Notes under the pieces: model-generated | What the model was told of the DNA's origin: nothing | What the model saw: the letters and a program-made list of their open reading frames with translations, nothing else | Databases searched by the model: none | DNA from: a virus | Taxonomy: Duplodnaviria > Heunggongvirae > Uroviricota > Caudoviricetes | Strand: one strand, 5' to 3' | Virus record (IMG/VR): IMGVR_UViG_2920292642_000002 | Coordinates: 19,431 to 83,430 of that record | DNA length: 64,000 bases | Made by a program: the position numbers and the translations under genes | Part shown: positions 14,370 to 30,915 of the stretch, piece after piece | Numbering within the stretch: the stretch's first letter is position 1 | How the letters are laid out: every line of letters starts with the position of its first letter

Positions 14370-14450
14370 TCGGCAAGGAAATCTATACGGACTGCGATCG
14401 CGACAATCAATAGACTCTGTCGCGTTTTAACAAGGGATAAGTGGGGCAAC

Positions 14451-15680
14451 ATGTCCGATTTCGAGTTTATCGCCCAAGAGGGCAAGATGAGGTCCCATAT
14501 CAAGGCGTGGAACAGGGGCGTCGAGTTCGACGAGGGCACCTATGCCCAACTTAGAAACATCGCCAGCCTGCCATTCATCCACAAGCATGTGGCCGCTATG
14601 CCAGATGCACATGTCGGCATCGGAGCGACGGTCGGTTCGGTCATCGCCACCAAGGGCGCAGTGATCCCGGCAGCGGTCGGAGTCGACCTCGGCTGCGGAA
14701 TGATGGCGTGGCGCATCTCCCTGAAGGAGAGCGATCTGCCCGACTCGCTTGGCCACATCCGCGCCGAGATGGAGCGCGCGACGCCGCACGGTCGCACCAA
14801 CAACGGTGAGAAGGGTGATCGCGGCGCGTGGGATAACGCTCCGACCTCTGCACTCAACCGCTGGAATGGTCTCTTCGATCGTTACGAACAGATCATCGCC
14901 AAGCACCCGAAGGCCAAGAGCTACAACGGCCTCAACCATCTCGGCACGCTCGGCACCGGCAACCACTTCATCGAGCTTTGCGGTGACGAGAATCAGGACC
15001 TCTGGGTCATGCTGCATTCCGGCTCGCGTGGCATCGGCAACAAGATCGGCTCCTACTTCATTGAGCAGGCGAAGAAGGAGATGGAGCGCTACCACGTCAC
15101 CGAGTACCTGCCGAATGCGGACTGCGCCTATCTGGTCGAACACACCGAGCTTTTCCAAGACTATGTCGAGGCGGTTAGCTGGGCTCAGGACTTCGCGTGG
15201 GAGAACCGCAAGCAGATGATGCACCAGACCATTATGGCCCTGCGGAAGGTGCTGCCGCCGTTCGCTGTAACCCAAGAGGCGATCAACTGCCATCACAACT
15301 ACATCTCTCGCGAGCATCATTTCGGCGAGAACGTGATCGTCACGCGCAAGGGCGCTGTCCGGGCGCGCGAAGGTGATCTCGGGATCATCCCCGGCTCCAT
15401 GGCAACCGGCTCCTACATCGTGCGCGGCAAGGGGAATCACGATTCCTTCTGCTCGTGCTCGCATGGTGCCGGCCGGCGCATGAGCCGTGGTCAGGCCTTC
15501 AAGGCGATCAGCCTCGAAGACCACATCAAGGCGACCGAGGGGGTTGAGTGCAGAAAGGATGCCGACGTGATCGACGAGAGCCCGGCAGCCTACAAGGACC
15601 TCGGCGCGGTGCTCGCCGCCCAGTCCGATCTCGTCGAGGTCGTGCACCGGCTGCGGACGCTCGTGAACGTCAAGGGTTGA
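14451..15680 (+). CDS. rtcB: RNA-splicing ligase RtcB (3'-phosphate/5'-OH RNA ligase)
   Basis: VGVDLGCGM, GNHFIELCGDEN, HSGSRGIGNKIG, SCSHGAGRRMSRGQA metal/GTP-binding motifs; start aligned to canonical RtcB N-terminus (MSDFEFIAQEGKMRSHIKAW). Confidence 0.9.
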   Translation: MSDFEFIAQEGKMRSHIKAWNRGVEFDEGTYAQLRNIASLPFIHKHVAAMPDAHVGIGATVGSVIATKGAVIPAAVGVDLGCGMMAWRISLKESDLPDSLGHIRAEMERATPHGRTNNGEKGDRGAWDNAPTSALNRWNGLFDRYEQIIAKHPKAKSYNGLNHLGTLGTGNHFIELCGDENQDLWVMLHSGSRGIGNKIGSYFIEQAKKEMERYHVTEYLPNADCAYLVEHTELFQDYVEAVSWAQDFAWENRKQMMHQTIMALRKVLPPFAVTQEAINCHHNYISREHHFGENVIVTRKGAVRAREGDLGIIPGSMATGSYIVRGKGNHDSFCSCSHGAGRRMSRGQAFKAISLEDHIKATEGVECRKDADVIDESPAAYKDLGAVLAAQSDLVEVVHRLRTLVNVKG

Positions 15681-16452: not shown

Positions 16453-16606
16453 CGCGGCCGACGACCTGTTCGACGCGGTGCTGCGTGAGCAGGAGATGCG
16501 ACATATCCTGCGCACCGCCTGCCCCTGTCACAATGAGAGCAACTGGTTCCGCAACGACGATGGCGTGATGGAATGCCGTCAATGCGGGGAAATGGTGGAT
16601 GAATAG
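16445..16606 (+). CDS. hypothetical small zinc-ribbon-like protein (CPCHNESNWF...CRQCGEM)
   Basis: ORF 16415..16606 from internal ATG 16445. Confidence 0.35.
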   Translation: MGSAADDLFDAVLREQEMRHILRTACPCHNESNWFRNDDGVMECRQCGEMVDE

Positions 16607-16607
16607 G

Positions 16608-17069
16608 ATGAGTGCAGAGCCTCAATACAAGAACATTCCAACGGTCTGCGTCACCGTCGTGCCGTTGACCACTGACAACAGGTTCAGCGGCATATTGCTG
16701 GTGAAGCGCGGTCTCAAGGACGATTGGCACGGTAAGTTGGCGCTACCGGGCGGCTATCAGGAGTTTGGCGAGACGTGGCAGGAGGCAGCCGCGCGCGAAG
16801 TTCGCGAGGAGACCGGGCACGAGGTCGAGATCGCGAGCAGGCCTTTTGCAGTCATGACGGTTCCGTCCGGCCACAACCTAATTTTCGGCGTGGCTTATCC
16901 GATCCCGTTCGACCAGCATGCCAACTACGAGCAGGTCGAGACGCTGGAGATCATGGCCGGCCGGGAGCCGTTCGAGCTTGCCTTTCCAGCGCACACCCAG
17001 ATTTACAATACGTGCCTGAGATTCCTCCGACAATCGCTGGACCTGAGCCACCTTTTCAGTAAAACTTGA
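16608..17069 (+). CDS. NUDIX hydrolase
   Basis: Nudix box GGYQEFGETWQEAAAREVREETG. Confidence 0.7.
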   Translation: MSAEPQYKNIPTVCVTVVPLTTDNRFSGILLVKRGLKDDWHGKLALPGGYQEFGETWQEAAAREVREETGHEVEIASRPFAVMTVPSGHNLIFGVAYPIPFDQHANYEQVETLEIMAGREPFELAFPAHTQIYNTCLRFLRQSLDLSHLFSKT

Positions 17070-17768: not shown

Positions 17769-18041
17769 TCATTCCGTCGTCGTGAACTTGGTGCGGTGCT
17801 TGACACAGAACGGGCACTGCCATCCGTACTTGCGCGTTCTCTTGTAGCCACGCGCTCTCGCTTCCTCGGCCGATCGCTTCATCATCCAGTCCGGCCGCTG
17901 CCCAGTCCTGAACAGGAGACCTGAGTTTTCCGCGTCTTGCGTGGCGCACGACATCATCCCATAGGGCGGAGCCTTGCGCCAAATACTGTCCGGCACATCC
18001 TCAGCCGGCGTGTCGCAGTGTATTTCAATCCAGACAGCCAT
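17769..18041 (-). CDS. hypothetical protein with C-terminal zinc-ribbon (CPFCVKH)
   Basis: internal Met (MAVWIEIHCDT) of ORF 17769..18287; upstream remainder is high-GC shadow. Confidence 0.4.
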   Translation of the reverse strand: MAVWIEIHCDTPAEDVPDSIWRKAPPYGMMSCATQDAENSGLLFRTGQRPDWMMKRSAEEARARGYKRTRKYGWQCPFCVKHRTKFTTTE

Positions 18042-18510
18042 TCCAAATCTCCTCGGTATCAATGACCGGAAAACCCTGCTGGCGCGACCGGCAGACCATG
18101 TCGGCCGTCCCGGAGCCTCCGGGCATGGCCACGACGGCATGTGGGCGCGGCTGGCTGTCCAGTATGGCTTGGTTGCGGCGAGGCCCTGCGGCCTTCCTGA
18201 AGCGCTCCCAGTCGGCCTTGGTGATCGGCAGTGCACGCTCGCCGACTGAGTTCGATCGAGCCCAGAAGCCGAGCAGCTTGTCGGCACCTGTAGCGTTCCC
18301 GTGGGTGATGAAGCTCGGGTTGAGGATGGACTTGATCGGCTGCATCGAGAGATCGAGGAACTTCAAGTTAAGGAAATTCCGTCCACCGGTCCCGGCAATG
18401 ACAATGCGTTGGAGAGGACCCCAGCGCTCGATGATCTCAGTTAGAGCGGCGCGCGCCTCGGCTATCAGCGCGCGCCGGTATCTCTCCAACACCTTATCCG
18501 TCGTCGTCAT
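18025..18510 (-). CDS. SLOG/DUF2493-like Rossmann-fold protein (161 aa)
   Basis: IVIAGTGGRNF ... HAVVAMPGGSGTADMV pattern typical of phage YspA-like SLOG proteins. Confidence 0.45.
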   Translation of the reverse strand: MTTTDKVLERYRRALIAEARAALTEIIERWGPLQRIVIAGTGGRNFLNLKFLDLSMQPIKSILNPSFITHGNATGADKLLGFWARSNSVGERALPITKADWERFRKAAGPRRNQAILDSQPRPHAVVAMPGGSGTADMVCRSRQQGFPVIDTEEIWNGCLD

Positions 18511-19678: not shown

Positions 19679-19873
19679 TTAATGCTGGACGCCCTGAACC
19701 TGTTTTCCGCAGCCGGGGCAGACGATATACCAGACGGTGTCTCTACCGCCACCGTAGTCGGTGTAGCTGAGGGTCTGGACTTCCGACCGGGTGTAACGGA
19801 GCCGGGAGGCGCACGAGCGGCAGGTGCATTCGAACACCTGCGACTCGTCCCGACCGACAATCTGAACCATCAA
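19679..19873 (-). CDS. small zinc-ribbon protein (64 aa; CTCRSC...CPGCGK)
   Basis: ORF track; 4-nt overlap with nadV start. Confidence 0.45.
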   Translation of the reverse strand: MMVQIVGRDESQVFECTCRSCASRLRYTRSEVQTLSYTDYGGGRDTVWYIVCPGCGKQVQGVQH

Positions 19874-21288
19874 AGCCCCCTGTACTGTGCCCGCTCTCGA
19901 ACCTCGGCGAAGTTCCAGTGCTTGATCATCGGCACGGTGCTACGATCATCCATCCGGTAGACCGTCTGGAGGAGATCGCCGGGGACGGTGTATGGTCCTT
20001 CCGTGGGGATGGTTACGATGCCTTCGGTGCCGGGCATCCGGATGACATGCTGCACGCCGGCCTTTGACGCCTTCGACGGGTCGGTCTTCGGCTTCTTCTG
20101 GACGCTGTACCACGAGCCATCCGTGCGACCGATCGCCGAGGCCTTCATGGCGAAGCGCAGCGTGTCGCGGTTGACGTGCTGAAGCAGGCCGGCACCCATG
20201 CCGAAGGCGACGTTGTCGAGCGACCAGCCGTTTCCGATCATGGCGTCGACGATCTCGGTCAGGCTCTCGCGATCGATGCCGTCGCCCTGAATGAGGCGGA
20301 CCTTCGGGTGCAGGACCTTGTAGCCCTTCGAGTTGGTGGTGAAGCCCCATTCGTCGGCAAGCATCTCCAGCGACGACAAGACCAGATCAAGCGGATCGCC
20401 GCTGTCCGGGCGGATCACCAACGTCCCCTCGCGCGCATTCACGAGAGCACTCAGGTCACGACTCCAAATCTTCTGGAGTGCGTTCCAGTAGTCGTAGCTG
20501 TCGGAGACGACGGCGACGAGTCCACGCGGGAACTTCTCCAGCATGTTGCGATAGGCGTCGTTCTCGCGATCCGCACCCCACGACGTGATCGTGCTGTGCT
20601 CGGCGGCCGGGATCGAGAAGCCAGCCATGCCAGCATGGTAGTAGCGCTGGGCGAAGTACGCACCCATCATGGTGTCAGTGCCCTTGAAGTTCACCAGATG
20701 CGCCGCGCCGCCGATGCCGGCCTGCTCATTTGCACCCGTACCACGCGCGCCGAAATCATGGAGCTTGAACGGGGCCTGCCCGGCAGGATCATCGGACGAC
20801 CGCATCAGCGCGTCGACGATCACCTTCTTGATCTCGCGCGAGTTGGTGGCCACGGTCGACGGATACCAGACCGCGCGCAGCAGCGCCGTCTCGACGTAGC
20901 TGGTCAGCCACGGCAGGCGCGGATCGGTGTTGACAACCTGCACCATCGGAGTCCCGGTTGGCACCACCGTGCCCTCGGAAAGCGCCTTGATCTCTAGTGG
21001 TAGATATCCGTCGTATTCGTGAGCGATGATCTCCCAGCCGGTGCGATTGAACGGTACGCCGTGCGCCTCGCAGAAGGCCTCAGCCTCATCGATCACATTG
21101 GCGGTGACCTGCGGACCCCACAGCAGATATTCCTTGATGAACATCTGGAGGCCGAAGAAGACGACCTCGTCGTAGCCCTCCACCGGCCGCGCCTCGATGT
21201 AAGAGTTCACGAAGGCCGTCTCAGGCGGGTACTGGAGGAAGTGCGAAGTCTTGTAGCTGTCGGTATTCAGAATCGGATTGATCTTCAT
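19870..21288 (-). CDS. nadV: nicotinamide phosphoribosyltransferase (NadV/NAMPT)
   Basis: N-terminus MKINPILNTDSYKTSHFLQYP and full-length 472 aa NAMPT-like sequence. Confidence 0.9.
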   Translation of the reverse strand: MKINPILNTDSYKTSHFLQYPPETAFVNSYIEARPVEGYDEVVFFGLQMFIKEYLLWGPQVTANVIDEAEAFCEAHGVPFNRTGWEIIAHEYDGYLPLEIKALSEGTVVPTGTPMVQVVNTDPRLPWLTSYVETALLRAVWYPSTVATNSREIKKVIVDALMRSSDDPAGQAPFKLHDFGARGTGANEQAGIGGAAHLVNFKGTDTMMGAYFAQRYYHAGMAGFSIPAAEHSTITSWGADRENDAYRNMLEKFPRGLVAVVSDSYDYWNALQKIWSRDLSALVNAREGTLVIRPDSGDPLDLVLSSLEMLADEWGFTTNSKGYKVLHPKVRLIQGDGIDRESLTEIVDAMIGNGWSLDNVAFGMGAGLLQHVNRDTLRFAMKASAIGRTDGSWYSVQKKPKTDPSKASKAGVQHVIRMPGTEGIVTIPTEGPYTVPGDLLQTVYRMDDRSTVPMIKHWNFAEVRERAQYRGL

Positions 21289-21290
21289 GA

Positions 21291-22304
21291 TTACAGTCCC
21301 AACATGTCCTGAATGATGCTGAAGTGATCTTCGAAGAACTCACCGCGCTCCAGTGAGTCGACCGGGTGCCAGTTGGCACTCTCGGCGTCGTCCGCGCCGT
21401 TCACCCGCCACAACGGCTTGGCGTCCGGCAGACGGAACAGGAAGGCGTGCGTTACCGTCCGACCGCGAGTTGACCGATAGGGATTGTCGAAGACCTTGCT
21501 CTCGGTGATGTACGTGTCTAGCCGGCCGGGAGGGATGCGTCCGCGCCCGTCCGCGATCTCCGTCTCCTCGCGCAGTTCACGCACGGCCGCTGTACGGATG
21601 CGCTCGTACTGGTCGATGAAGCCGCCCGGCAGTGCGAGCAGACCCTTGCCGGGATAGTCTCCGCGCCGGATCAGGAGGATGTGGCCGGACTGGACGACGA
21701 CGGCGTCGACCGTGATGAAGGTCGGCGGGAAGGGTGCCGCCTCCCACGAGCGCCGGTAGCGCGAGATCGACTCGTGCTCGTAGTGGAGATTCCAATAGAA
21801 GTCGGAACTTACCCAGTCGTTCAGATATTGCCCGACTTCAGCAGGCATGGCCGTCGCGTCGATCTTCTTGAGGAAGGAGAAATAGGCGTTACGAATCGTG
21901 GTCGCGTCGAGCGTTCTGCGCGTCGACTGGATGTCGAGCGAGCCCCAGTCCGGGAAGAGCTTCAGATAGAAACTCGACTGATCCTTCGAGTAGCCGACCA
22001 GAACGATGTCGTCGCCATAGGCGTTTTCGTTCACGCTGTTGCGGACCTCAGCGATCCAGCGCTCATCGCTGGGATAGTCGCAGATCGGCAGGAACTCGAC
22101 CCGGCCGATCTCCTCGTCGGACAGGGTGCGGCTGATCATCTGCACCCGTTCATGGAACAGCCACGGGTTGCGCGTCGACCGCGCCGCGCCGGCCGAGCCG
22201 ACGAGGATCAGAAGTTTGTCGAGTTGGGAAAGAGATTCGCGGACGATCTGGAGATGGCCGCAGTGAAAGGGCTGGAAACGCCCTATAAAGACGCCAGTGC
22301 GCAT
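21291..22304 (-). CDS. natV: bifunctional NMN adenylyltransferase / Nudix ADP-ribose pyrophosphatase (NatV/NadM-Nudix)
   Basis: N-terminal nucleotidyltransferase GRFQPFHCGHL (HxGH) plus C-terminal Nudix box GGFIDQYERIRTAAVRELREETE. Confidence 0.85.
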   Translation of the reverse strand: MRTGVFIGRFQPFHCGHLQIVRESLSQLDKLLILVGSAGAARSTRNPWLFHERVQMISRTLSDEEIGRVEFLPICDYPSDERWIAEVRNSVNENAYGDDIVLVGYSKDQSSFYLKLFPDWGSLDIQSTRRTLDATTIRNAYFSFLKKIDATAMPAEVGQYLNDWVSSDFYWNLHYEHESISRYRRSWEAAPFPPTFITVDAVVVQSGHILLIRRGDYPGKGLLALPGGFIDQYERIRTAAVRELREETEIADGRGRIPPGRLDTYITESKVFDNPYRSTRGRTVTHAFLFRLPDAKPLWRVNGADDAESANWHPVDSLERGEFFEDHFSIIQDMLGL

Positions 22305-22392
22305 GAGACACCCTCATGATGTTGAAGAGGTCACGCCCACCGCGTGACCATGCTCTTACTACTCCGATCGGAGTCGTTTGTCAAGAATTAGT

Positions 22393-22932
22393 TTACATCG
22401 CCAGAACAGGACTGAGTTCGGCAAGCCGCTGCAACGGCATCCGCTGGTCGGCGATCATGCGGTAGAGCGGCATCTGTTCGCGACCACCTTGGAAGAAGGT
22501 CATCATGAAGAAATCGAACTCGTCGATGTGCTTGCCGGCCCAGATCGGATCGCGCGTCAGAAGGTCATGCTGGTGGTGGCAGTAGCGATCGGCGAGCTTG
22601 ACCAGCGACGCCCGTGGATCGGACGCAGCGCGCGGCAGTGAGATGGCCTTGGCTTCGCTCCGGGACAATCCCTCGGGATCGGTCACGAGGTCGACGATCC
22701 GCGCAATCTCGTTGCCGTAGGCGTAGCGGATGTCCTCGCTCTCGACATCGGTATCCTCGACGATGTCGTGCAGCCACGCCGCCGCGATGGTCTCCTGATC
22801 GGTCGTGAACAGTGCCACCATCCCGGCGACGGCCGTCAGGTGGTGCGTGTAGGGAAGATTGCCGTAGGTCTGGTTGCGGTGATGCTCGACCGCGAGCGCA
22901 CGCGCCGTATCGGCGACAGTTCGGTTTTTCAT
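22393..22932 (-). CDS. HD-domain (p)ppGpp hydrolase-like protein (small alarmone hydrolase-like)
   Basis: HHRNQTYGNLPYTHHLTAVAGMVA ... AAWLHDIVEDT resembles RelA/SpoT HD hydrolase domain; start at MKNRTV after GGAGAC RBS. Confidence 0.65.
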   Translation of the reverse strand: MKNRTVADTARALAVEHHRNQTYGNLPYTHHLTAVAGMVALFTTDQETIAAAWLHDIVEDTDVESEDIRYAYGNEIARIVDLVTDPEGLSRSEAKAISLPRAASDPRASLVKLADRYCHHQHDLLTRDPIWAGKHIDEFDFFMMTFFQGGREQMPLYRMIADQRMPLQRLAELSPVLAM

Positions 22933-23042
22933 ACAGGTCTCCTTGAGCCGGTCAGAGGTAATCCTTGACCTCCCGGACTGTCCAGAGTATCTGTCCAAGA
23001 CTGCGCGACTGTCAAGCGTATCTTTTCACTCTTATGGTTAAC

Positions 23043-23117
23043 GACGTGGTGGCGGAGTGGCTTACGCGCCGGATTGCAACCCCGGTCACGCCGGTTCAAT
23101 TCCGGCTCACGTCTCCA
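23043..23117 (+). tRNA. tRNA-Cys(GCA), CCA encoded, U73 discriminator
   Basis: manual cloverleaf: acceptor GACGTGG/TCACGTC, T-arm GCCGG-TTCAATT-CCGGC, anticodon loop TTGCAAC; A31-C39 mismatch. Confidence 0.6.
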
Positions 23118-23131
23118 ACTCCCCTGAGCAA

Positions 23132-23356
23132 ATGCGGCATTTCAAGATCATCACTCAAGACGACTGCAAATACTGTGACCGCGCGAAGGCGCTGATTCGG
23201 GAGATGGGTGATACCTTCTCCGAGATCAATCTTTCGACATTCACTGAGGAGGCGCGGGGCGCGTTCAAGAAACGCTACGGGACCGTTCCGCAGGTCTTCC
23301 TCGAAACGGTGCGCATTGGCGGCTCCGACGATCTTGCGGCATGGTACGCTACTTAG
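23132..23356 (+). CDS. glutaredoxin-like protein (NrdH/Grx family, 74 aa)
   Basis: CKYC active site and GTVPQVF...GG motif. Confidence 0.7.
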   Translation: MRHFKIITQDDCKYCDRAKALIREMGDTFSEINLSTFTEEARGAFKKRYGTVPQVFLETVRIGGSDDLAAWYAT

Positions 23357-23816
23357 CCGACTCCTTGACGTGGTAGGCGTCGCCTTCCTTGTCCTTGACC
23401 AGTATTCCCCTCTTGGCCATCTCGGACAGAGCGGCCCATACCGTCTGCTTGCGGATACCATCACCGAGCGCTGCGATGATCTCGGCGCTCGTCATCGGAC
23501 GTTCCTGACCAATTAATATGGTTGTGATTTGCTGCTTTATCGGCGGTTTTTTCTCGATAACGGCCGACATGAAATCCTTTGCGGCGCGCTTCGTAGATGG
23601 TGGGTTTACCGGGCCATTCGATTTTCGAGTCTTGGGAGCGGCGTGCGATTCCGTTTGTCGTTGCTGGTCGGCTTTCTTGAAGGAGTGGTAGGCCCCGGCC
23701 TCGATCGGCTCTCGGAGAGATTCGATCGTGTTTCTGACATCCTCCAATTTGTTTATTCTGATTTTTAATGCTTCGATCTCGCGGTCGATCTGGGCGCACA
23801 TCGCATCGATGTCCAT
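23349..23816 (-). CDS. hypothetical protein with C-terminal winged-helix DNA-binding domain
   Basis: TSAEIIAALGDGIRKQTVWAALSEMAKRGILV resembles wHTH regulators. Confidence 0.45.
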   Translation of the reverse strand: MDIDAMCAQIDREIEALKIRINKLEDVRNTIESLREPIEAGAYHSFKKADQQRQTESHAAPKTRKSNGPVNPPSTKRAAKDFMSAVIEKKPPIKQQITTILIGQERPMTSAEIIAALGDGIRKQTVWAALSEMAKRGILVKDKEGDAYHVKESAK

Positions 23817-24099
23817 TAACGACTCCCTGTCCCCTTGGTTTGTTGTTGCTGCGGTTCTCCGCAGACGATTACCTCACCCAAGGTCAGACCTTATCTGAAA
23901 TATGGCATCATGGGTATAACTCGTGCGTTAAGGAGGCTGGAAATTAACGGACGAAATCATAAGTCATTATGTCGCATAATTCGTCGGCTTTTAAGCCGGG
24001 TGGGTGCACCATCTAGGGTGCTTTCTGAAGGCGGGCAAGCGACTCATACGTGTACGCATGAAAAAGCCCCGACCGCTATCGGCCGGGGCTCTGTACTCA

Positions 24100-24417
24100 T
24101 CACATTTTGTCGAAATCGACAGCGTCATTGACCGGGATTAGAAGCTCTTCGAGATCGAGCATCACGTCCTCGTACTTCTTGATGAAGGCCTTGGTCACCT
24201 GCACGTCCGGGAGCGCGACGCTGTTGGGCTGGGCGTAGAGGGTGCCGAGCCCATCGACGTAAGCATCCTTGTTGACCTGCCTGACGCGGAGGGTCGTGTC
24301 ACCCTTCGGGCGCTCATGCTTGAACCAGTTCCAGAATGCCTTGTCGACATCCTCGGCCTTGCCCCACGAATTTCCTCCGACCACGATAAAGTGGTTGAGC
24401 GGCTGTTGCTCACTCAT
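24100..24417 (-). CDS. hypothetical protein (105 aa)
   Basis: ORF track; followed by hairpin plus U-tract at 24059-24092. Confidence 0.5.
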   Translation of the reverse strand: MSEQQPLNHFIVVGGNSWGKAEDVDKAFWNWFKHERPKGDTTLRVRQVNKDAYVDGLGTLYAQPNSVALPDVQVTKAFIKKYEDVMLDLEELLIPVNDAVDFDKM

Positions 24418-25106
24418 GTTGACACTCCTATAAGGTTTTCAAAGAACATTCCGCCTCATTGGCAGCATCTATATCATAGCATATCTGGTTGATATTGCAA
24501 CAACTTTGTTCTTTGTAAGAATACTTGCGAGACAAGACTAGGTTGAGTGCAGACTAACTTTGAATACTACTGCAAACACGAAAAAGGCCCGGTGGGAGAC
24601 GGGCCTTGATGGTTAGGGGTTGAGTGCAGAGACTAACATCGCAGGAATGATGACGATCTGGAGGAGAGCGGCTGGTCTTGATCCGCAGACCTCTCCCGAG
24701 GTCCCAACCGTTTTCGAGACGGTGCCGGCGCGCCTGTCCGGTTCACTCTCCATAACTGGTCCGAGGGGAGAGAATTTGCACTCCCACAGTCTAAGACGGC
24801 CGCTTTACAGGCGGTTAGGCTCACTCGTGCCCAGCCCTCGGATGCGCGATCGCGTATAAAGCGAGTTTATCCGGAATCGCGTATAAATGGCGGAAGGCGG
24901 TGGCCCTGATCCACTAACCCGTGCGGGTCTCATCCGTTTAGCAAACGGAGCCGGCCCGAGCCGGTTCACCTTCCAGAAATGAAATGGAGGAGACGGAGAG
25001 CAGGCCAGTATCGCTCGCGCTCGATTACGGGCGCGCCGGCCTGTCTCCTAGCCCTCTTACTCGCGCCATCCTATCGAGCCAACAGGACCGCTTCGGCAGG
25101 GCATCT

Positions 25107-25192
25107 TGGCGGAGAGCGGAGAACTCGAATCCCACACCTTGCGGTGCGCTTCGCCTTCCAAGCGGGCCGGGAACCTATCCCGTTCACTCTCC
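25107..25192 (-). tRNA. tRNA-Ser(GGA), class II
   Basis: manual fold: acceptor GGAGAGU/GCUCUCC, long variable arm, loop UUGGAAG, T-loop TTCGAGT, CCA encoded. Confidence 0.5.
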
Positions 25193-25196
25193 ATAC

Positions 25197-25272
25197 TGGT
25201 CCCAGCGGCAGGATTCGAACCTGCGACCTCTCCCTTATGAGGGGAAAGCACTACCGCCGTGCTCCACTGGGT
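25197..25272 (-). tRNA. tRNA-Met(CAT) (elongator or Ile-lysidine type)
   Basis: manual fold: T-arm GCAGG-TTCGAAT-CCTGC, anticodon loop CTCATAA, CCA encoded. Confidence 0.6.
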
Positions 25273-25748
25273 TAATCGCGTCGGACCACCTGAATGGGGC
25301 CGTCCGACAGAATGTCGTGCTTGATGCAGACCTCGACGGCGCGCTCGGCCGTCGCGCCCATCTCCAGAGCACCCACGGCGATCATGTCGCCGGAGCCGAA
25401 GACGTGCCATTCGCTCTCGACCTCGTAAGGTGGATCGTCCCCCTCGAAGCGGATGCAGACGCCGTCCGGCTTGATCACGAAGCCGGTGCAGTTGTCGTCC
25501 TTCCCAGTCGGCTCGATCCGAGGACTGCTGTACTCCAGATTCTGGAGGAACTTGGGGAAGTTGTCCGAGCGGCACCAGCGGATGAACTTGGCGACGTAGG
25601 GCGCTTCGCCGGTCCCACCGACGAGGTAGGCTTCACCATCGACATCGACGCGAGCGATCTTCTCGGCGTGGCCGAGCACGTTCCAGTTGCGTCGGATCAA
25701 CTGAGAATCCGACGCAAGGACACCGTCACGATAGACGAGGACAGTCAT
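25272..25748 (-). CDS. HslV-like N-terminal-nucleophile peptidase (proteasome beta-subunit family)
   Basis: MTVLVYRDG N-terminus (Thr2) and GSGDMIAVGALEMGATAERAVEV similar to HslV. Confidence 0.5.
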   Translation of the reverse strand: MTVLVYRDGVLASDSQLIRRNWNVLGHAEKIARVDVDGEAYLVGGTGEAPYVAKFIRWCRSDNFPKFLQNLEYSSPRIEPTGKDDNCTGFVIKPDGVCIRFEGDDPPYEVESEWHVFGSGDMIAVGALEMGATAERAVEVCIKHDILSDGPIQVVRRD

Positions 25749-26131
25749 CAGTAGCGCGCCGCGCCGAGCGAACGGGAAGGCGCAGCGCCCAGACCGGTCT
25801 CGGTGGACTTCTTGCCCTTCTTCTTGTTGTCGTCGAAGAACTTGTCGAGCGACTGGACCTGCACCGCCTTGACGATCAGGCGAACGATCGCGACCGGGTA
25901 GGTATTGGCCGAGGCCGAAACATCTCCGAAAGTGGCGATCGACGACTCGGTGTCGCCATTGCCGATCTTCCCGCCGACATCCCCCTTTCCGAGGATCGAA
26001 TTGACGGCCGCAGCCGCCTTGGTCACGTCGGTGAGGTCGGTGCCGAGGAGATTGTTCGCTGCTGCGAGCGCCGCGTCCTCGTCGTTGAGCTTGCTGATTT
26101 CGACCAGCTTCTCGAAGTCGTTTCTGTCCAT
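25748..26131 (-). CDS. hypothetical protein (127 aa)
   Basis: ORF track. Confidence 0.45.
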   Translation of the reverse strand: MDRNDFEKLVEISKLNDEDAALAAANNLLGTDLTDVTKAAAAVNSILGKGDVGGKIGNGDTESSIATFGDVSASANTYPVAIVRLIVKAVQVQSLDKFFDDNKKKGKKSTETGLGAAPSRSLGAARY

Positions 26132-26203
26132 GCCCGGAACTCCCTTGTGGTTAGGCTTGCGGGATTCCGTTTAGGGGTTCTTTACGGCAGTGTCAAGAAA
26201 AAC

Positions 26204-26277
26204 TGGATGCCCTGCCACGACTCGAACGTGGACTCATCGCTTCAAAGGCGCGCGTCCTACCTTTAGACGACAGGGCA
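26204..26277 (-). tRNA. tRNA-Gln(TTG)-like; weak anticodon stem
   Basis: manual fold: acceptor TGCCCTG/CAGGGCA, T-arm CCACG-TTCGAGT-CGTGG, loop CTTTGAA, CCA encoded. Confidence 0.5.
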
Positions 26278-26287
26278 GGAGTGAGGG

Positions 26288-26360
26288 TGGCTCGGCAGGT
26301 ACGGGTCGAACGTACATCGGCTGATTCAGAGTCAGCGTGCTTACCATTAGCGACTGCCGA
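26288..26360 (-). tRNA. tRNA-Gln(CTG)
   Basis: manual fold: anticodon arm GCTGA-CTCTGAA-TCAGC, T-arm GTACG-TTCGACC-CGTAC, CCA encoded. Confidence 0.6.
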
Positions 26361-26366
26361 ATAAAC

Positions 26367-26443
26367 TGGTGCCAAGGGGAAGTTTCGAGCTTCCGACCTC
26401 CGGGGTTTCAATCCGGCGCTCTAACCATCTGAGCTACCAAGGC
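26367..26443 (-). tRNA. tRNA-Phe(GAA)-like; U-U mismatches in acceptor stem
   Basis: manual fold: D-arm GCTC-AGATGGTTA-GAGC, loop TTGAAAC, T-loop CTCGAAA, CCA encoded. Confidence 0.5.
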
Positions 26444-26451
26444 ATAAAAAT

Positions 26452-26537
26452 TGGCTCGCGAGGGAGGGATCGAACCTCCGCCCCCTTCGGGGTCCACCGG
26501 TTAACAGCCGGGAACATTACCACTCTGCCACTCGCAA
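26452..26537 (-). tRNA. class II (long variable arm) tRNA with anticodon loop CTGTTAA (reads GTT/Asn-like; one base from Tyr GTA)
   Basis: manual fold: variable arm CCCCGAAGGGGG, T-arm GGAGG-TTCGATC-CCTCC, acceptor starts UU. Confidence 0.45.
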
Positions 26538-26546
26538 TCATAACAC

Positions 26547-26634
26547 TGGAGAACCGGGTGGGGATCGAACCCACGGTGGGCTTTCGCCATCGGATTAAAA
26601 GTCCGCGCCCTTCGACCAACTTGGATACCGGTTC
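26547..26634 (-). tRNA. class II scaffold tRNA with Lys anticodon TTT
   Basis: manual fold 88 nt: acceptor GAACCGG/CCGGTTC, variable arm GGCGAAAGCC, loop CTTTTAA, T-arm GTGGG-TTCGATC-CCCAC. Confidence 0.45.
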
Positions 26635-26640
26635 ACGATC

Positions 26641-26715
26641 TGGAGCCCTGCTCGGGGACCGCACCCGCTTCTACCGCTTACAAGGCGGCTGCTTCACTCT
26701 CAAAGCTTTCAGGGC
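26641..26715 (-). tRNA. tRNA-Thr(TGT)-like; non-canonical T-loop TGCGGTC
   Basis: manual fold: D-arm GCTT-TGAGAGTG-AAGC, anticodon arm GCCGC-CTTGTAA-GCGGT. Confidence 0.5.
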
Positions 26716-26721
26716 ATTGTC

Positions 26722-26796
26722 TGGAGCCTCGGTCGGGAACTGCACCCGCTTCTGACCGGTACGAACGGCCTGCTTCACTCGCAAAGCTTTCGAGGC
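26722..26796 (-). tRNA. tRNA-Thr(CGT)-like; non-canonical T-loop TGCAGTT
   Basis: paralog of previous unit; anticodon arm GGCCG-TTCGTAC-CGGTC. Confidence 0.5.
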
Positions 26797-26807
26797 ATAA
26801 TAAATAA

Positions 26808-26895
26808 TGGAGTACCCGGCTGGATTCGAACCAGCGGTGTGCTTTCGCAGGCGGATTAAGAGTCCGACGCCATCGACCAACTCGGCCACGGGTAC
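26808..26895 (-). tRNA. class II scaffold tRNA with Lys anticodon CTT
   Basis: manual fold 88 nt: D-arm GCC-GAGTTGGTCGAT-GGC (Ser-like), loop CTCTTAA, variable arm TGCGAAAGCA, T-arm GCTGG-TTCGAAT-CCAGC. Confidence 0.45.
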
Positions 26896-26901
26896 ATTAG
26901 C

Positions 26902-26975
26902 TGGAGCCGACACGTGGAATTGAACCACGGCTCCGTCCTTACCACGGACGGCGTCTACCACTGACATATATCGGC
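26902..26975 (-). tRNA. tRNA-Thr(GGT)
   Basis: manual fold: anticodon arm CGTCC-GTGGTAA-GGACG, T-arm CGTGG-TTCAATT-CCACG. Confidence 0.6.
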
Positions 26976-27060
26976 AAAATTTAACTGTCTCGATTAATCG
27001 AGCCGCAACTTGTCCTTGCTACAACCGCTGTGCTGATCACAACACCACGAGGCAACAGAC

Positions 27061-27243
27061 ATGATGAAACTGCTGAAGCGCTTCCAGAGCGATGAGTCTG
27101 GAGCAACTGCAATCGAATACGGCCTGATCGCTGCTTTGATCGCGCTGGCGATCGTCGTCGGCGCTGGCGCACTCGGCGAGAACCTGAACGCCAAGTTTCA
27201 GGCAATCAGTGACCAGTTGGCGGGTACGCCGGAGGGAGAATAG
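27061..27243 (+). CDS. flp: Flp/Fap-family type IVb (Tad) pilin precursor (60 aa)
   Basis: prepilin signature KRFQSDESGATAIEYGLIAALIALAIVV matching the Flp motif; own terminator follows. Confidence 0.75.
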   Translation: MMKLLKRFQSDESGATAIEYGLIAALIALAIVVGAGALGENLNAKFQAISDQLAGTPEGE

Positions 27244-27282
27244 AGTTCCTTGTCCGCGTTACAGCAACGACAAGCAACTGAC

Positions 27283-27310
27283 CGCCCTCCGGGGCGGTTT
27301 TTTTTTTTTG
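27283..27310 (+). terminator. rho-independent terminator of flp-like gene
   Basis: CCGCCCTCCGGGGCGG hairpin followed by T11. Confidence 0.65.
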
Positions 27311-27386
27311 GTGGAGACGGTGAGAATCGAACTCACAACAGCCTGCTTGCAAGGCGGGCTCGCTAACCCTTAGAACATGCGTCCCC
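27309..27386 (-). tRNA. tRNA-like, probably Ala(TGC); D-arm unclear
   Basis: T-arm GTGAG-TTCGATT-CTCAC, acceptor GGGGACG/CGTCTCC, loop CTTGCAA. Confidence 0.4.
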
Positions 27387-27563
27387 AAACTCTGAAAAAT
27401 GATCCGGCAGGCGGGCGAGTGTCCCCGCGTCATCTCCCCGGCTAGACAGCACCGAGGTTTTGCAGCCACGCCTTGTCTAAGGGCGGGTCGCTATGTCCGG
27501 AAGGTCACGTTATTCCACGCCAGACCATCCGCTGCTCGTCGCGTTCTGAGCTACTGCCGAAAC

Positions 27564-27640
27564 TGGACCTTCCGGCTGGGATCGAACCAGCGCCCTCCAG
27601 CTTCGGAGGCCGGCGCTCTTGTCCGCTGAGCTACGGAAGG
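27564..27640 (-). tRNA. tRNA-Arg(CCG)
   Basis: manual fold: anticodon arm CCGGC-CTCCGAA-GCTGG? with T-arm GCTGG-TTCGATC-CCAGC, acceptor CCTTCCG/CGGAAGG. Confidence 0.55.
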
Positions 27641-27643
27641 AAT

Positions 27644-27718
27644 TGGAGCGGGTAGCGAGGGTCGAACTCGCGCCTCTAGGCTGGCAACCTAGTGCTCTAC
27701 CAACTGAGCTATACCTGC
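27644..27718 (-). tRNA. tRNA-Gly(GCC)
   Basis: manual fold: anticodon arm CTAGG-TTGCCAG-CCTAG, D-arm GCTC-AGTTGGTA-GAGC, T-arm GCGAG-TTCGACC-CTCGC. Confidence 0.6.
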
Positions 27719-27905
27719 AATTTCGCGGGGTGGGGCTCAGGTCATCACTCCTGTCCCCTGAGCGGGTGATGATCCGGTTTGGGGCCGGTCCCTCTCCCCC
27801 TGCTCGGAGAGCCCGAAGGCTCAATCCTTGGAAACTCTCGACAGGGGTCACCTGTCGCTAGGCAAGGCTCTGAAGGTTGACGAGACCTTCGCCCTTGCGT
27901 GCCTA

Positions 27906-27983
27906 TGGCCTCCCCGGAGAGATTCGAACTCCCGACACGGGAGGTAGAAGCTCCCTGCTCTAGGTCCACTGAGCTACGGAGAG
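27906..27983 (-). tRNA. tRNA-Arg(TCT)
   Basis: manual fold: anticodon arm GGGAG-CTTCTAC-CTCCC, T-arm GGGAG-TTCGAAT-CTCTC. Confidence 0.55.
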
Positions 27984-28431
27984 GAGATCGCTTTTGGAGG
28001 GAGGCCAGCAGGCCATCGTTAGATGGAGTGTCAACACAACGGAGTCGCAAGACTTGCCGAAGCTGCCGACCTCCCGCCAAAGGCGATCTAGGTGCCGAAA
28101 GCGTGAGACTACCGCTTTCGATGACGACCTTCCCGCATTATCCGACGCCTTGCGAGCGTGGTTCTCGGGATGTCCACGCCGAGCATATTGCTATGTCTCG
28201 ACGTATTCGTCAATGCCGCCTTTTTTAGCGCGTGGCGTTTCGCGCGTCGCTGCGTGCTATTCGGCGTCTCGTCGACCGTGAGCCTTGCGGGCTCTTCGCG
28301 GCTGCTACACCGCTACGATCTCTTCCTCACCGACACCCTCCAGCTTGCGACCTTCAGGTGACCCAGTTCCCCGCAGGGCTGGGCATTAGGCATCTTTCAC
28401 ACGCAACCGGGACAGGCTTTGCGTTTTGTTA

Positions 28432-28506
28432 TCGTGAGGCCGGATTTGAACCGGCGACCGATGGCTTAGAGGGCCATTGCGCTACCAACTGCGCTACTCG
28501 CAACCC
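28432..28506 (-). tRNA. tRNA-like (anticodon loop CCTCTAA, TCT with C33; no encoded CCA) - possible pseudo-tRNA
   Basis: T-arm GCCGG-TTCAAAT-CCGGC, D-arm GCGC-AGTTGGTA-GCGC, acceptor with mismatch. Confidence 0.35.
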
Positions 28507-29061
28507 ACCGAGACGTGCTGCCCCAGTTGCTCCAAGCCCTTTTGGGACCCAGAATACAACACGCCTGCTGCTACCTTTCGCGCTGCTAACGCTACTCGAT
28601 CATGCTTCGAGATCACGGGTCATTTCAGCCCGAGACCTTGCCACATTGCCAGACGCCCTCGGCCGCTAAGCCTCGAACCTTCTGACTACCCTTCATCATC
28701 GGCCATCGATCAGTTTGCGTGCCGGGCGCGCTTTGCGAGCGCTTGAGGGCCACCATCGGCTACCCTCTTATCCAACCTTGCGGGTCGGACCCTGCCTGAT
28801 CTTCGGGCCTAGCCCACCTTCCGGTAAGCCGGGTGTCCCCGTGACTGGGCTTGCATGGCTGGACGCGGTTACCCGCGTGGAGGTTTATGGGAAACCCTCC
28901 TTTGGGCCGGTTGCCCGGCTTACCCTGACGACGCCATGCCGCCAAACTCTGCTCCGGTTCTCGTCGCCGATCGCCGTCGCCTTGTTGTCCTCTAACTACT
29001 TCACGACTGCGCCGCCCGTCAAGCATTAATTTGCAATCGTGTTAAGATTTTTTCGACATAC

Positions 29062-29141
29062 TGGAGCGCACGGCAGGGGTCGAACCTGCATCTTCCTCCA
29101 TTACCTTACTCTCGGTTCGTAGCCGAGGGGGTTACGTGCGC
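29062..29141 (-). tRNA. tRNA-Arg(ACG)-like with aberrant architecture (no recognisable D-arm, 21-nt insertion after anticodon arm)
   Basis: perfect acceptor GCGCACG/CGTGCGC, anticodon arm CTCGG-CTACGAA-CCGAG identical to E. coli tRNA-Arg ACG, T-arm GCAGG-TTCGACC-CCTGC. Confidence 0.4.
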
Positions 29142-29146
29142 ATAAA

Positions 29147-29222
29147 TGGCGAGCCATAAGGGAGTCGAACCCTCCTTCTCCGATCGACAGTCGGAGCCCT
29201 TCACCACGACGGGAAATGGCCC
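29147..29222 (-). tRNA. tRNA-Asp(GTC)
   Basis: manual fold: anticodon arm TCCGA-CTGTCGA-TCGGA, T-arm GAGGG-TTCGACT-CCCTT, CCA encoded. Confidence 0.6.
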
Positions 29223-29230
29223 ATTGAAAA

Positions 29231-29305
29231 TGGAACTGGGAGCCCGGCTCGAACGGGCGATTCCGGGGACACAACCCGGCCGGTTACCTCTACCGTCATC
29301 CCAGC
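29231..29305 (-). tRNA. tRNA-His(GTG)
   Basis: manual fold: anticodon arm CCGGG-TTGTGTC-CCCGG, T-arm GCCCG-TTCGAGC-CGGGC. Confidence 0.6.
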
Positions 29306-29313
29306 ATAGTGTT

Positions 29314-29388
29314 TGGAGCGGACTGCCGGGATCGAACCGGCCTTGGGAGATTGGAAGCCTCTTAACTCACCGAGAGCAAGCCCGCATG
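29314..29388 (-). tRNA. tRNA-like, probably Gly(TCC); short D-arm
   Basis: T-arm GCCGG-TTCGATC-CCGGC, acceptor GCGGGCT/AGTCCGC, loop CTTCCAA. Confidence 0.4.
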
Positions 29389-29400
29389 TCTGGTACGCCT

Positions 29401-29482
29401 AGCAGGACTTGAACCTGCACGCCGAAGCACGGGCATCTCAGTCCCGCGTGTCTACCTTTCCACCATAGGCGCATGTTTGTTT
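29401..29482 (-). tRNA. tRNA-Leu(GAG), class II
   Basis: loop CTGAGAT, variable hairpin TGCTTCGGCGT, T-arm GCAGG-TTCAAGT-CCTGC. Confidence 0.5.
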
Positions 29483-29621
29483 GGCGGGGCCGAACACCTG
29501 TCGACCCGATCCGGACGCGATCCCGGACCCTGCACGATTACCCTCTCGCCGATCGCGCGGCCGTTCATGACCGGCCTTTGTTCTCGGGCGATTTTGATGA
29601 AGAGAGTCGCCGTCGCCAATC

Positions 29622-29704
29622 TGGTGTCCGAGGGGAGACTTGAACTCCCACGCCGAAGCTCTGCGGTCTGAGCGCAGTGCGTCTTCCGATTCCGCCACTC
29701 GGAC
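29622..29704 (-). tRNA. tRNA-Leu(CAG), class II
   Basis: anticodon arm CTGCG-CTCAGAC-CGCAG, variable AGCTTCGGCGT, T-arm GGGAG-TTCAAGT-CTCCC. Confidence 0.6.
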
Positions 29705-29710
29705 ATGTCT

Positions 29711-29820
29711 GGTGGAGTGTGACCGGATTTTTACCGGAGCCCATAGGGACAGGTGTACGGCCTGTTCGGGATAGGCAGTCCCGCTCGCAGACCTCTAGCG
29801 GTCCGCTTAATCACAACTCC
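29711..29820 (-). ncRNA. unresolved 110-nt tRNA-like RNA (acceptor-like ends GGAGTTGTG...CACACTCCACCA, multiple internal hairpins; no canonical T-loop)
   Basis: encoded CCA tail and terminal helix but atypical internal structure. Confidence 0.3.
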
Positions 29821-29825
29821 ATAGA

Positions 29826-29904
29826 TGGTGCCTCGCCCCGGATTCGAACCGGGAGGATGTCGCCGGGTTTGAGCCGACCGCGTCTTCCGTTCCGCCAGCA
29901 AGGC
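29826..29904 (-). tRNA. tRNA-Leu(CAA)
   Basis: anticodon arm GTCGG-CTCAAAC-CCGGC, T-arm CCCGG-TTCGAAT-CCGGG. Confidence 0.55.
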
Positions 29905-29960
29905 ATTGATACGTTTAGAGGTATAGAGCGCGCGGCTCTATACGTCTAAAGGTATCAGAT

Positions 29961-30035
29961 CGTGGCAAAGGCTGAGAGATTCGAACTCCCGCCGCAGGGT
30001 TTTGGAGACCCGCATGCTACCGCTACAACAAGCCG
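29961..30035 (-). tRNA. tRNA-Trp(CCA)-like; two mismatches in acceptor stem
   Basis: anticodon loop CTCCAAA as in E. coli tRNA-Trp, T-arm GGGAG-TTCGAAT-CTCTC. Confidence 0.45.
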
Positions 30036-30676: not shown

Positions 30677-30679
30677 GGA

Positions 30680-30754: not shown

Positions 30755-30758
30755 AAAT

Positions 30759-30914: not shown

Positions 30915-30915
30915 T

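Follow-up and report, generated by a model that had tools for sequence, protein, structure and literature searches.

A RelA/SpoT-family hydrolase gene next to putative NAD+ reconstitution genes in a phage genome

Background

Hydrolases of the RelA/SpoT homologue (RSH) family remove the 3'-pyrophosphate from (p)ppGpp or (p)ppApp in a Mn2+-dependent reaction. A gene of this family, related to the small alarmone hydrolases (SAHs), is located at positions 22393-22932 on the minus strand of the DNA analysed here, a stretch of 64,000 nt from a phage record (IMG/VR IMGVR_UViG_2920292642_000002, positions 19,431 to 83,430; hereafter the window). Promiscuous SAHs also take (p)ppApp (PMC9765508), and in Mesh1 and the Xanthomonas enzyme XccSAH the chemistry extends to the 2'-phosphate of NADPH (bioRxiv 10.1101/325266, PMC9765508).

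Several described systems are comparable to this locus. The SAHs of the Salmonella phages SSU5 (PaSpo subfamily) and PVP-SE1 (PbcSpo subfamily) neutralise CapRel, PhRel, PhRel2, FaRel and FaRel2, that is all toxic small alarmone synthetases (toxSAS) that were tested (PMC7229694). MESH1 and ATfaRel restore tRNA that has been pyrophosphorylated by FaRel2 (bioRxiv 10.1101/2021.04.30.441581). The Aph1 family comprises (p)ppApp hydrolases; for Aph1 itself, (p)ppGpp activity was not detectable, and two helices common in (p)ppGpp hydrolases are reportedly missing from it (PMC10083569). XccSAH, which does not have the nicotinamide-riboside motif, still dephosphorylates NADPH slowly (PMC9765508).

The second group of relevant systems are the NAD+ reconstitution pathways (NARP). 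NARP2 consists of a phage nicotinamide phosphoribosyltransferase (NAMPT) and a nicotinamide mononucleotide adenylyltransferase (NMNAT), rebuilds NAD+ and overcomes NAD+-depleting defences (bioRxiv 10.1101/2024.02.11.579819). In NARP1-AP, the Macro-domain phosphatase Adpp has been added to a NARP1 operon (Osterman et al. 2026, bioRxiv 10.64898/2026.01.28.702374). In the Pakpunavirus Adele, a stretch of about a dozen genes includes NARP1 (gp022, gp024) together with a Macro gene (020), a kinase and an RNA ligase (025, 026) and a SAH (032) (PMC12846349). The literature already covers phage SAHs as well as NARP2, and the hydrolase described here is a further member of a published SAH kind. The role favoured in the following, with confidence slightly above even, is that of a SAH co-expressed with NARP2 that would act in counter-defence by hydrolysis of alarmones or of pyrophosphorylated tRNA.

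Results

A stand-alone RSH hydrolase

The gene is a single open reading frame (ORF) with an ATG at 22932 and the stop codon included at 22393, and its product has 179 amino acids. An earlier interpretation made from the letters of the DNA, here called the sequence-only reading, had placed a RelA/SpoT-type HD hydrolase at exactly these coordinates. A profile search, suggested there as a check, returned Pfam HD_4 (PF13328) with 59.4 bits (E=4.6e-16, cut-off 27.2). The generic Pfam HD profile reached 20.1 bits, which is under its cut-off of 22, and no other HD family was listed. NCBIfam TIGR00691 (spoT_relA) aligned over its N-terminal hydrolase region only (E=2.9e-19), and PHROG 990, 'metal-dependent phosphohydrolase', matched with E=1.6e-30.

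Among proteins of known structure, the top matches of the single sequence are Drosophila Mesh1 (3nqw; 1e-15, 61 bits) and human MESH1 (3nr1; 54 bits), below which Rel/SpoT hydrolase domains and bacterial SAHs are found. A profile of 36 homologues retrieved the hydrolase domains of Rel, Mesh1 and SpoT at E=1e-24 to 1e-26, with the Rel proteins of B. subtilis, S. aureus and S. equisimilis at E=2e-26 to 2e-24. Aph1 (7smg) is the second-weakest of the 24 profile matches (E=3.4e-8) and is missing from the single-sequence matches. The sole sequence match outside the RSH family, the uncharacterised protein 2pjq, is weak (E=3.3e-5). Judging by the sequence and profile searches, Mesh1 and Rel are closer relatives of the hydrolase than PaSAH, RelH or Aph1.

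The AlphaFold2 model, computed with the homologue alignment, has 12 helical segments and high scores (predicted local distance difference test, pLDDT, 96.4; predicted template modelling score, pTM, 0.92). All 46 Foldseek matches in the PDB at E<=1e-3 are RSH hydrolases, among them RelH, PaSAH, Mesh1, SpoT, Rel, Aph1, Lmo0812 and TdActApo2. The template modelling (TM) score of the model is 0.6-0.77 to RelH, PaSAH, Mesh1, Rel/SpoT and Aph1, and 0.70-0.77 to RelH, PaSAH and Mesh1. dNTPases, which like other HD subfamilies would have spoken against the sequence-only reading by its own criterion had they aligned better, and YfbR-type HD families are not among the Pfam, NCBIfam, PDB sequence or Foldseek results for the hydrolase, and assignment to a dNTPase or another HD subfamily was rejected. 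The name given in the public record, 'bifunctional (p)ppGpp synthetase/hydrolase', was likewise rejected, as the protein of 179 amino acids has the hydrolase domain only and no synthetase domain. By family and fold, the gene encodes a stand-alone, single-domain RSH hydrolase. The subfamily in which it falls is characterised by a short HD1 loop, H-x-x-Q-[K/R]-Y-G...AAWLHD, and is widely distributed among phages and bacteria alike (>500 matches per scan).

Each of the known relatives shares part of these features. The hydrolase domain of long RSH enzymes (Rel, SpoT) has the same HD2-HD5 motifs and fold, whereas the window protein has no synthetase or regulatory domains and has neither the HD1 Arg nor the HD6 Asn. 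Like the phage SAHs of SSU5 and PVP-SE1, it is a single-domain RSH hydrolase with the same catalytic core and no adjacent synthetase; their role in toxSAS neutralisation is proposed for the window gene as well. It differs from the SSU5 enzyme in sequence (28.7% identity over 73% of the query) and in the HD1 loop, which reads H-x-x-Q-x-Y-G in the window and QKRKYT in SSU5, and from both phage SAHs in having His at HD6 and in its NARP2 operon-like position. The Mesh1 and Mesh1-like proteins (human MESH1, Drosophila Mesh1, XccSAH), top-scoring among the solved relatives, are of similar size (~180 amino acids) and all-helical; structural alignments give 26-27% identity to Mesh1. Aph1 (7SMG) belongs to the same superfamily and has counterparts in the same genomic niche (loci L250, L264, L265 and L277, see below), but it is shorter (149 amino acids), and the Asp typical of HD1 in Aph1 is absent from the window protein. 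With a profile E-value of 3.4e-8 for Aph1 against 1e-26 for Rel and Mesh1, the window protein is not of the Aph1 type.

Conserved and changed residues of the active site

The window protein was aligned with 185 relatives (108 viral, 35 from the protein database and 42 bacterial), with the six-motif RSH scheme (PMC9293644) and the MESH1-NADPH contacts (bioRxiv 10.1101/325266) as references. HD2 (MESH1 H35, window H31), HD3 (H61-D62, window H55-D56), HD4 with the Glu-Asp pair for nucleophilic attack (E65-D66, window E59-D60, in LHDIVEDT) and HD5 (D122, window D115-R116) are kept. The same applies to the phosphate contact Y32 (window Y28) and to the position of K97, which binds the 5'-phosphate and corresponds to R91. 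H31, H55, D56, E59, D60 and D115 are identical in all 185 relatives, K112 in 184 and R91 in 160 of them. The metal ligands and the equivalents of Y32, E65-D66 and K97 are thus shared with Mesh1.

Changes are found at HD6 and HD1. The HD6 Asn (MESH1 N126, RelSeq N148) is replaced by H119, encoded by a CAC codon at 22576-22578 (minus strand), and the HD1 Arg (MESH1 R24, RelSeq R44) falls on T22-Y23-G24, with R24/K25 of Mesh1 aligning with Y23/G24 or T22/Y23. In addition, a Tyr that is near-invariant in the family is His135 in the window (CAC, 22528-22530, minus strand); in the alignment this position corresponds to R142 of MESH1, which is part of the helix in contact with the nicotinamide riboside of NADPH. 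The RelA/SpoT-type HD motifs named in the sequence-only reading are therefore present for HD2-HD5, but HD6 has His instead of Asn and HD1 does not have Arg. Judged by these residues, the catalytic machinery is intact and the substrate-positioning shell unusual. A natural Asn-to-His variant at HD6 was not found described in the literature searched.

NARP2 neighbours

Directly downstream of the hydrolase gene and on the same strand, two genes of NAD+ metabolism are encoded, the NAD salvage pair to which the sequence-only reading had referred. The first is a bifunctional NMN adenylyltransferase/Nudix hydrolase (21291-22304; NF003786, E=1.4e-113; Pfam CTP_transf_like and NUDIX; PHROG 395). It is followed after 2 nt by NAMPT (19870-21288; NF006629, 582 bits against a cut-off of 405, E=8e-175; Pfam NAMPT_N and NAPRTase; PHROG 448, E=9e-159). 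By these profile matches, the two genes correspond to the NAMPT and NMNAT pair that defines NARP2. In architecture only, the locus is like NARP1-AP, where a two-enzyme NAD+ reconstitution operon has an added third gene for a hydrolytic enzyme; the window pathway is NARP2, and its extra enzyme is an RSH hydrolase instead of a Macro domain.

No RelA_SpoT synthetase domain was found when the neighbouring genes and another 20 large ORFs without annotation were scanned in the window, which covers only about half of the phage genome. This bears on the idea that the hydrolase is a type IV antitoxin or immunity partner for a toxic alarmone synthetase of the phage itself, comparable to FaRel-ATfaRel or MuF-Apk2/Aph1. 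SAHs do fill such a role elsewhere (PMC7229694, PMC10083569), but with no synthetase domain within this half of the genome, and with NMNAT and NAMPT rather than a synthetase as the conserved neighbours, immunity to the phage's own toxSAS is highly improbable and was rejected.

The hydrolase gene and the NMNAT/Nudix gene are separated by 88 nt. Neither an intrinsic terminator nor a clear promoter can be called in this gap. It contains a GC-rich hairpin at 22329-22349 (minus strand) with an 8-bp stem, GGUCACGC-5 nt-GCGUGACC, without a trailing U-tract; it was not called a terminator, and the folding energy of the region is unremarkable (z=-1.4). In related phages the gap contains an ORF of 82-88 amino acids that is absent from the window.

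Upstream of the hydrolase ATG, a Shine-Dalgarno sequence, AAGGAG, can be read at a distance of 6 nt (22939-22944, minus strand). A consensus scan yielded a sigma-70-like promoter candidate at 22986-23015 (minus strand; TTGACA-18-GATACT, 10 of 12 matches), a pattern match only, of a kind found 2 times against 1.2 expected by chance. This candidate could drive the hydrolase, NMNAT and NAMPT genes, and the three are probably co-transcribed, presumably from the hydrolase's own promoter. A longer ORF starting with TTG (to 22998, 201 amino acids) was rejected because the homologues begin at the ATG, which the Shine-Dalgarno sequence and the promoter-like site also fit.

Gene order in related phages

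The order hydrolase-NMNAT/Nudix-NAMPT is kept in Mesorhizobium phage Cp1R7A-A1, with a hydrolase 60% identical to that of the window, and in the metagenomic relatives L082 and L083 (45-49% identical). The arrangement common to these three is glutaredoxin, HD_4, (small ORF), NMNAT/Nudix, NAMPT, YAcAr and RtcB. Inside this clade, conservation of gene order could be due to simple shared ancestry.

For a broader view, the surroundings of HD_4 relatives were surveyed in 159 IMG/VR loci, together with the window and related loci, which form 109 groups at 90% identity. NAMPT or Namat is found within 6 kb of the HD_4 relative in 7 of the 109 groups: three from the window clade, two with the order HD_4-Adps-Macro-Namat (L087 and L090), one with Adps and Namat (L102), and Pseudomonas phage phiPsa374. 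In the uncultured phages L087 (6001-9431) and L090 (6037-10243), the HD_4 gene heads an operon of Adps (Prs-like), Macro and Namat. The hydrolase ORF of L087 overlaps the Adps start by ~40 nt, and L090, at 61% identity, has the same gene order. Both loci show the NARP1-AP architecture with a fourth gene. In phiPsa374, HD_4, a phosphoesterase, an RNA ligase, Adps and Namat are encoded in one same-strand block of 7 kb.

RNA-repair genes (T4-type Rnl1, AAA_33 kinase, CCA-adding enzyme or RtcB) are neighbours in 15 of the 109 groups, and a Metallophos phosphoesterase only in 2 more. A PaSpo-like clade of phage HD_4 genes (L048, L057, L069/L070, L076, L077, L129, L140) is almost always flanked by T4-type RNA ligase 1, AAA_33 kinase and calcineurin-like phosphoesterase, and in L085 (8001-9706) an HD_4 relative directly precedes a CCA-adding enzyme. 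Such neighbours fit the published idea of RSH hydrolases as RNA 3'-end healing enzymes.

Among 80 bacterial loci with relatives, metagenome-assembled genomes included, none has NAD-salvage or RNA-repair neighbours, one phosphoesterase apart. In Fisher tests of viral against bacterial loci, p is 0.02 for NARP and 2e-4 for RNA repair; the number of NARP-linked groups, 4, compares with a rough chance expectation of 0.5-1.4. A universal linkage of HD_4 and NAMPT was rejected on these counts (7/109 dereplicated viral groups, 0/80 bacterial loci). The association of HD_4 genes with NAD+ operons is recurrent, but it is found in a minority.

The reciprocal survey covered the 80 IMG/VR loci closest to the window NAMPT (49-58% identity), of which 69 have NMNAT alongside. 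An HD_4 relative is found within 8 kb at 10 of them, always on the same strand; after dereplication, 9 of 70 groups remain with such a relative when NAMPTs are grouped at 90% identity, and 6 of 38-44 when they are grouped at 70-80%. At six of the 80 loci the HD_4 gene is directly adjacent, with the order HD-NMNAT-NAMPT in L257, L261, L264, L265 and L277 and a position between both genes in L250. The former five share one NAMPT group (80% identity, single-linkage), but their hydrolase subtypes differ: the L257 hydrolase is of the window type (EQKYG...AAAWLHD), whereas those of L264, L265 and L277 are of the Aph1 type (L264 against 7smg, E=1.7e-26). The Aph1-type genes within or directly upstream of NARP2, all from uncultured phages, are located at 7436-7903 (L250), 6448-6912 (L264), 763-1233 (L265) and 6474-6923 (L277).

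As different SAH subtypes occupy one slot of the module, selection may act on an activity that they share. Since Aph1-family enzymes and promiscuous SAHs both take (p)ppApp, this activity would most simply be (p)ppApp hydrolysis, as far as gene neighbourhoods can tell. The recurrence of SAH genes at NAD+ reconstitution operons with swapping of subtypes was not found in the literature searched. The sequence-only reading had regarded the location in an anti-defence block as consistent with its proposal; because SAH-type genes recur beside NAD+ operons in other phages, the position is more than incidental.

Candidate substrates and roles

The motifs do not settle the activity, and (p)ppGpp, (p)ppApp, pyrophosphorylated tRNA and NADPH are all candidate substrates. 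The neighbourhood evidence leans towards (p)ppApp rather than towards the blunting of the stringent response, one of the two effects that the sequence-only reading had put forward. A related proposal is that the enzyme serves host takeover instead of anti-defence: it would lower host (p)ppGpp and thereby keep transcription, translation and nucleotide synthesis, including the steps that depend on phosphoribosyl pyrophosphate (PRPP), running, and in an alphaproteobacterial host the ppGpp-sensitive cell-cycle state might also shift. Fold and core are those of a (p)ppGpp hydrolase, NARP2 consumes PRPP and ATP, so that a de-repressed nucleotide metabolism would be helpful (bioRxiv 10.1101/2024.02.11.579819), and relatives of the phage use the host cell-cycle regulator CtrA (PMC9437464). 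However, the paper describing the latter has no mention of ppGpp, and the HD1 Arg and HD6 Asn, which position guanine in Rel enzymes, are both missing. Moreover, Aph1-type enzymes, whose founding member has no (p)ppGpp activity (PMC10083569), are found in the equivalent slot, and bacterial copies of the family do not have this gene context (0/80 loci). Host takeover is therefore considered doubtful.

The NAD+ genes next door also raise the possibility of an NAD-directed enzyme, namely a Mesh1-like 2'-phosphatase that converts NADP(H) to NAD(H), or 2'-phospho-ADP-ribose to ADP-ribose, as an accessory of NAD+ reconstitution. Such an activity would widen the supply for NAD+ rebuilding, as Adpp extends NARP1, and accessory phosphatases have a precedent in NARP operons (bioRxiv 10.64898/2026.01.28.702374). 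Mesh1 proteins are the best single-sequence matches in the PDB, MESH1 is an NADPH phosphatase (bioRxiv 10.1101/325266), and a bacterial Mesh1-like SAH dephosphorylates NADPH and affects NADH levels in vivo (PMC9765508). The gene is in an operon-like arrangement with NARP2 here, and its relatives are in one with NARP1-AP, up to the overlap with the Adps start in L087. In a pairwise alignment, W131, H135 and E138 of the window protein pair with W138, R142 and E145 of MESH1, which contact nicotinamide riboside.

The nicotinamide-riboside motif of MESH1 (W138, H141, R142, E145) is, however, mirrored only partly in the window (W131, K134, H135, E138). W131 and H135 are not conserved in orthologues with the same gene order, which have Y, F, K or H at 131 and Tyr at 135, and E138 is a feature of the family as a whole. 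A further point against this role is the small size of the bacterial NADP(H) pool in comparison with the NAD pool. For XccSAH, kcat/Km for NADPH is ~1,400-3,000 times below that for pppGpp, ppGpp and pppApp (PMC9765508). Aph1-type hydrolases, described as (p)ppApp-specific (PMC10083569), fill the same slot in related NARP2 modules, and the NARP literature searched has no mention of an NAD-directed enzyme of this kind. Taken together, an NAD-directed role is decidedly unlikely.

Phage genome around the gene

The window encodes phage hallmark genes (DNA polymerase, helicase, primase-like protein, RtcB and large terminase), which, together with 26 tRNA genes and the alignment to Cp1R7A-A1, identify it as phage DNA. 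A query of 7.5 kb around the hydrolase gene aligned with Cp1R7A-A1 at 71% nucleotide identity over 67% of its length. Cp1R7A-A1 is a phiCbK-like siphophage (PMC9437464), and on the basis of this alignment the source phage appears to be phiCbK-like as well. A protein 100% identical to the window hydrolase, WP_188254328.1, is recorded for a Pseudaminobacter soli assembly, on a contig of 391,276 bp. One third of this length, 130,425 bp, comes near the genome size of Cp1R7A-A1 (131,434 bp), and by this arithmetic the contig may consist of three tandem copies of a phage genome instead of carrying a prophage.

The tRNA genes are located at 23043-31431, where 25 of them form a dense minus-strand array. 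A tRNA-Cys gene (23043-23117) lies on the plus strand, beyond the start of the hydrolase gene. It is overlapped by the glutaredoxin ORF as listed (23057-23356, plus strand). As residue 31 of this ORF is the first to be covered by the Pfam match, translation probably starts at an internal Met near 23132 (MRHFKIITQDD...). Further genes near the hydrolase encode an HslV-like peptidase, a SLOG/YAcAr-like protein (18025-18510, minus strand), a Nudix protein separate from NMNAT/Nudix with a weak match to the PADLOC candidate PDC-S07 (16599-17069, plus strand) and the tRNA ligase RtcB (14361-15680, plus strand; PHROG 1075, E=8.5e-142). The latter three are all less than 8 kb from the NARP2 block, and the gene order of RtcB and YAcAr is kept in the related phages L001, L082 and L083. 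The tRNA array and RtcB suggest a large investment in tRNA supply and repair. PADLOC gave no match for the hydrolase and five neighbours, and a component of a known defence system was rejected on this result.

Farther away, a second HD-type protein (4455-5177, minus strand) is encoded between a DNA methyltransferase-like gene and a helicase gene; it has a weak, sub-threshold match to YfbR-like 5'-deoxynucleotidase (E=1.4e-4). A short tyrosine recombinase is found at 8147-8803 (plus strand; Phage_integrase, E=2.9e-24) and is conserved in Cp1R7A-A1 (69%), Sphingobium phage Lacusarx and giant Caulobacter phages. Its interpretation as a sign of a prophage was rejected because the gene is conserved across phiCbK-like phages and a virulent lifestyle has been postulated for the phiCbK-like relatives Cp1R7A-A1 and Lacusarx; it looks like a core gene of the lineage rather than an indication of lysogeny.

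Discussion

In the favoured reading, counter-defence together with NARP2, Mn2+ would by homology be held by H31, H55, D56 and D115, and E59-D60 would activate water. The enzyme would then remove the 3'-pyrophosphate from a purine nucleotide, with (p)ppApp and/or (p)ppGpp as the likeliest substrates and the pyrophosphorylated 3'-CCA end of tRNA as a possible further one. It could in this way undo the products of toxSAS-type effectors such as FaRel, CapRel, PhRel and Tas1-like enzymes, so that ATP/ADP or GTP/GDP or usable tRNA would become available again. The co-expressed NARP2 enzymes would rebuild NAD+ depleted by NADase defences, and both parts would form a module that restores nucleotide and cofactor pools drained by abortive-infection systems. 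The small alarmone hydrolase proposed in the sequence-only reading holds at the level of the family and has a precedent in toxSAS-neutralising phage SAHs (PMC7229694); its role is plausible, but the activity cannot be read from motifs with HD6 His and without the HD1 Arg.

A number of points weigh against counter-defence by this enzyme. At HD6, His119 stands where 185 of 185 relatives have Asn (KLADRYCHH against KLADRYCNH in the closest homologues), and the RelH mutants N126D and N126L of C. glutamicum and N137L of L. levettii are listed as inactive (PMC9293644). The HD6 Asn touches the scissile phosphate in MESH1 (bioRxiv 10.1101/325266) and holds the HD1 Arg in RelSeq (PMC9293644). Position 135 has His as well, a residue that no relative carries there, while 171 of 185 have Tyr. 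HD1 is without its base-stacking Arg and reads Q-T-Y-G in place of the family consensus Q-[K/R]-Y-G, and R44Q abolishes hydrolysis in long Rel enzymes (PMC9293644, PMC9765508); this absence is not disqualifying because PaSAH is active with Leu there, and many SAHs carry Asp at this position (PMC9293644). Outside the active site, no toxSAS is known in the host, and co-transcription is read from a consensus promoter match and an 88-nt gap with a GC-rich hairpin. The neighbourhood statistics are modest and the samples not independent: the IMG/VR groups of the hydrolase-side survey alone give 4/106 against 0/80 (p=0.14), and accessory genes of large phages cluster anyway. Chiefly on account of His119, and because activity is predicted from sequence, the confidence in counter-defence was lowered.

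The same residues could mark an impaired or re-purposed copy, in which N119H and Y135H have weakened or altered the activity and left a binder or sponge, an enzyme with another specificity, or a gene that drifts because selection is relaxed. Both Asn119 and Tyr135 are present in the nearest homologues (58-61% identity), and the HD6 Asn mutants of two SAHs are the inactive ones mentioned above. On the other hand, Asn-to-His is not among these mutants, and His would still be able to hydrogen-bond phosphate or base. The ORF is intact, with a good Shine-Dalgarno sequence and a promoter-like site, all metal ligands and the Glu-Asp pair are retained, and the AlphaFold2 model reaches the confidence expected of an ordinary member of the family. 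The divergence from Cp1R7A-A1 (60% identity) is similar to that of NMNAT (66%) and NAMPT (70%). An impaired copy is thus unlikely. The Asn-to-His exchange at an otherwise invariant HD6 is a ready-made probe of the role of this residue in RSH hydrolases.

A more far-reaching proposal, which we consider rather improbable, is that phage NAD+ reconstitution operons recurrently have a SAH as a third component under selection, with subtypes (window-type, Aph1-type, PaSpo-like) repeatedly recruited to NARP2 and to NARP1/NARP1-AP. If true, the hydrolase and the NAD+ enzymes would work together. One possibility is a joint answer to adenine-nucleotide drain, that is (pp)pApp synthesis plus NAD+ cleavage; another is a hydrolase that acts on a phosphorylated NAD-derived molecule which would otherwise block reconstitution. 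The pair His119/His135 would then reflect a change of specificity and not damage. Should none of these ideas apply, what is left is a further SAH homologue encoded by a phage.

Against toxSAS-type immunity (CapRel, PhRel, FaRel), SAHs could plausibly serve phages as a general answer, but only a small number of them have been tested, and little has been described of the context in which they naturally occur. At the locus described here, a SAH appears to be wired to NAD+ rebuilding, and similar wiring is found in several unrelated phage lineages with SAH subtypes swapped. This raises the question of whether such phages carry one co-regulated repair module against NAD+ cleavage, diversion of ATP into (pp)pApp and blocking of tRNA 3'-ends.

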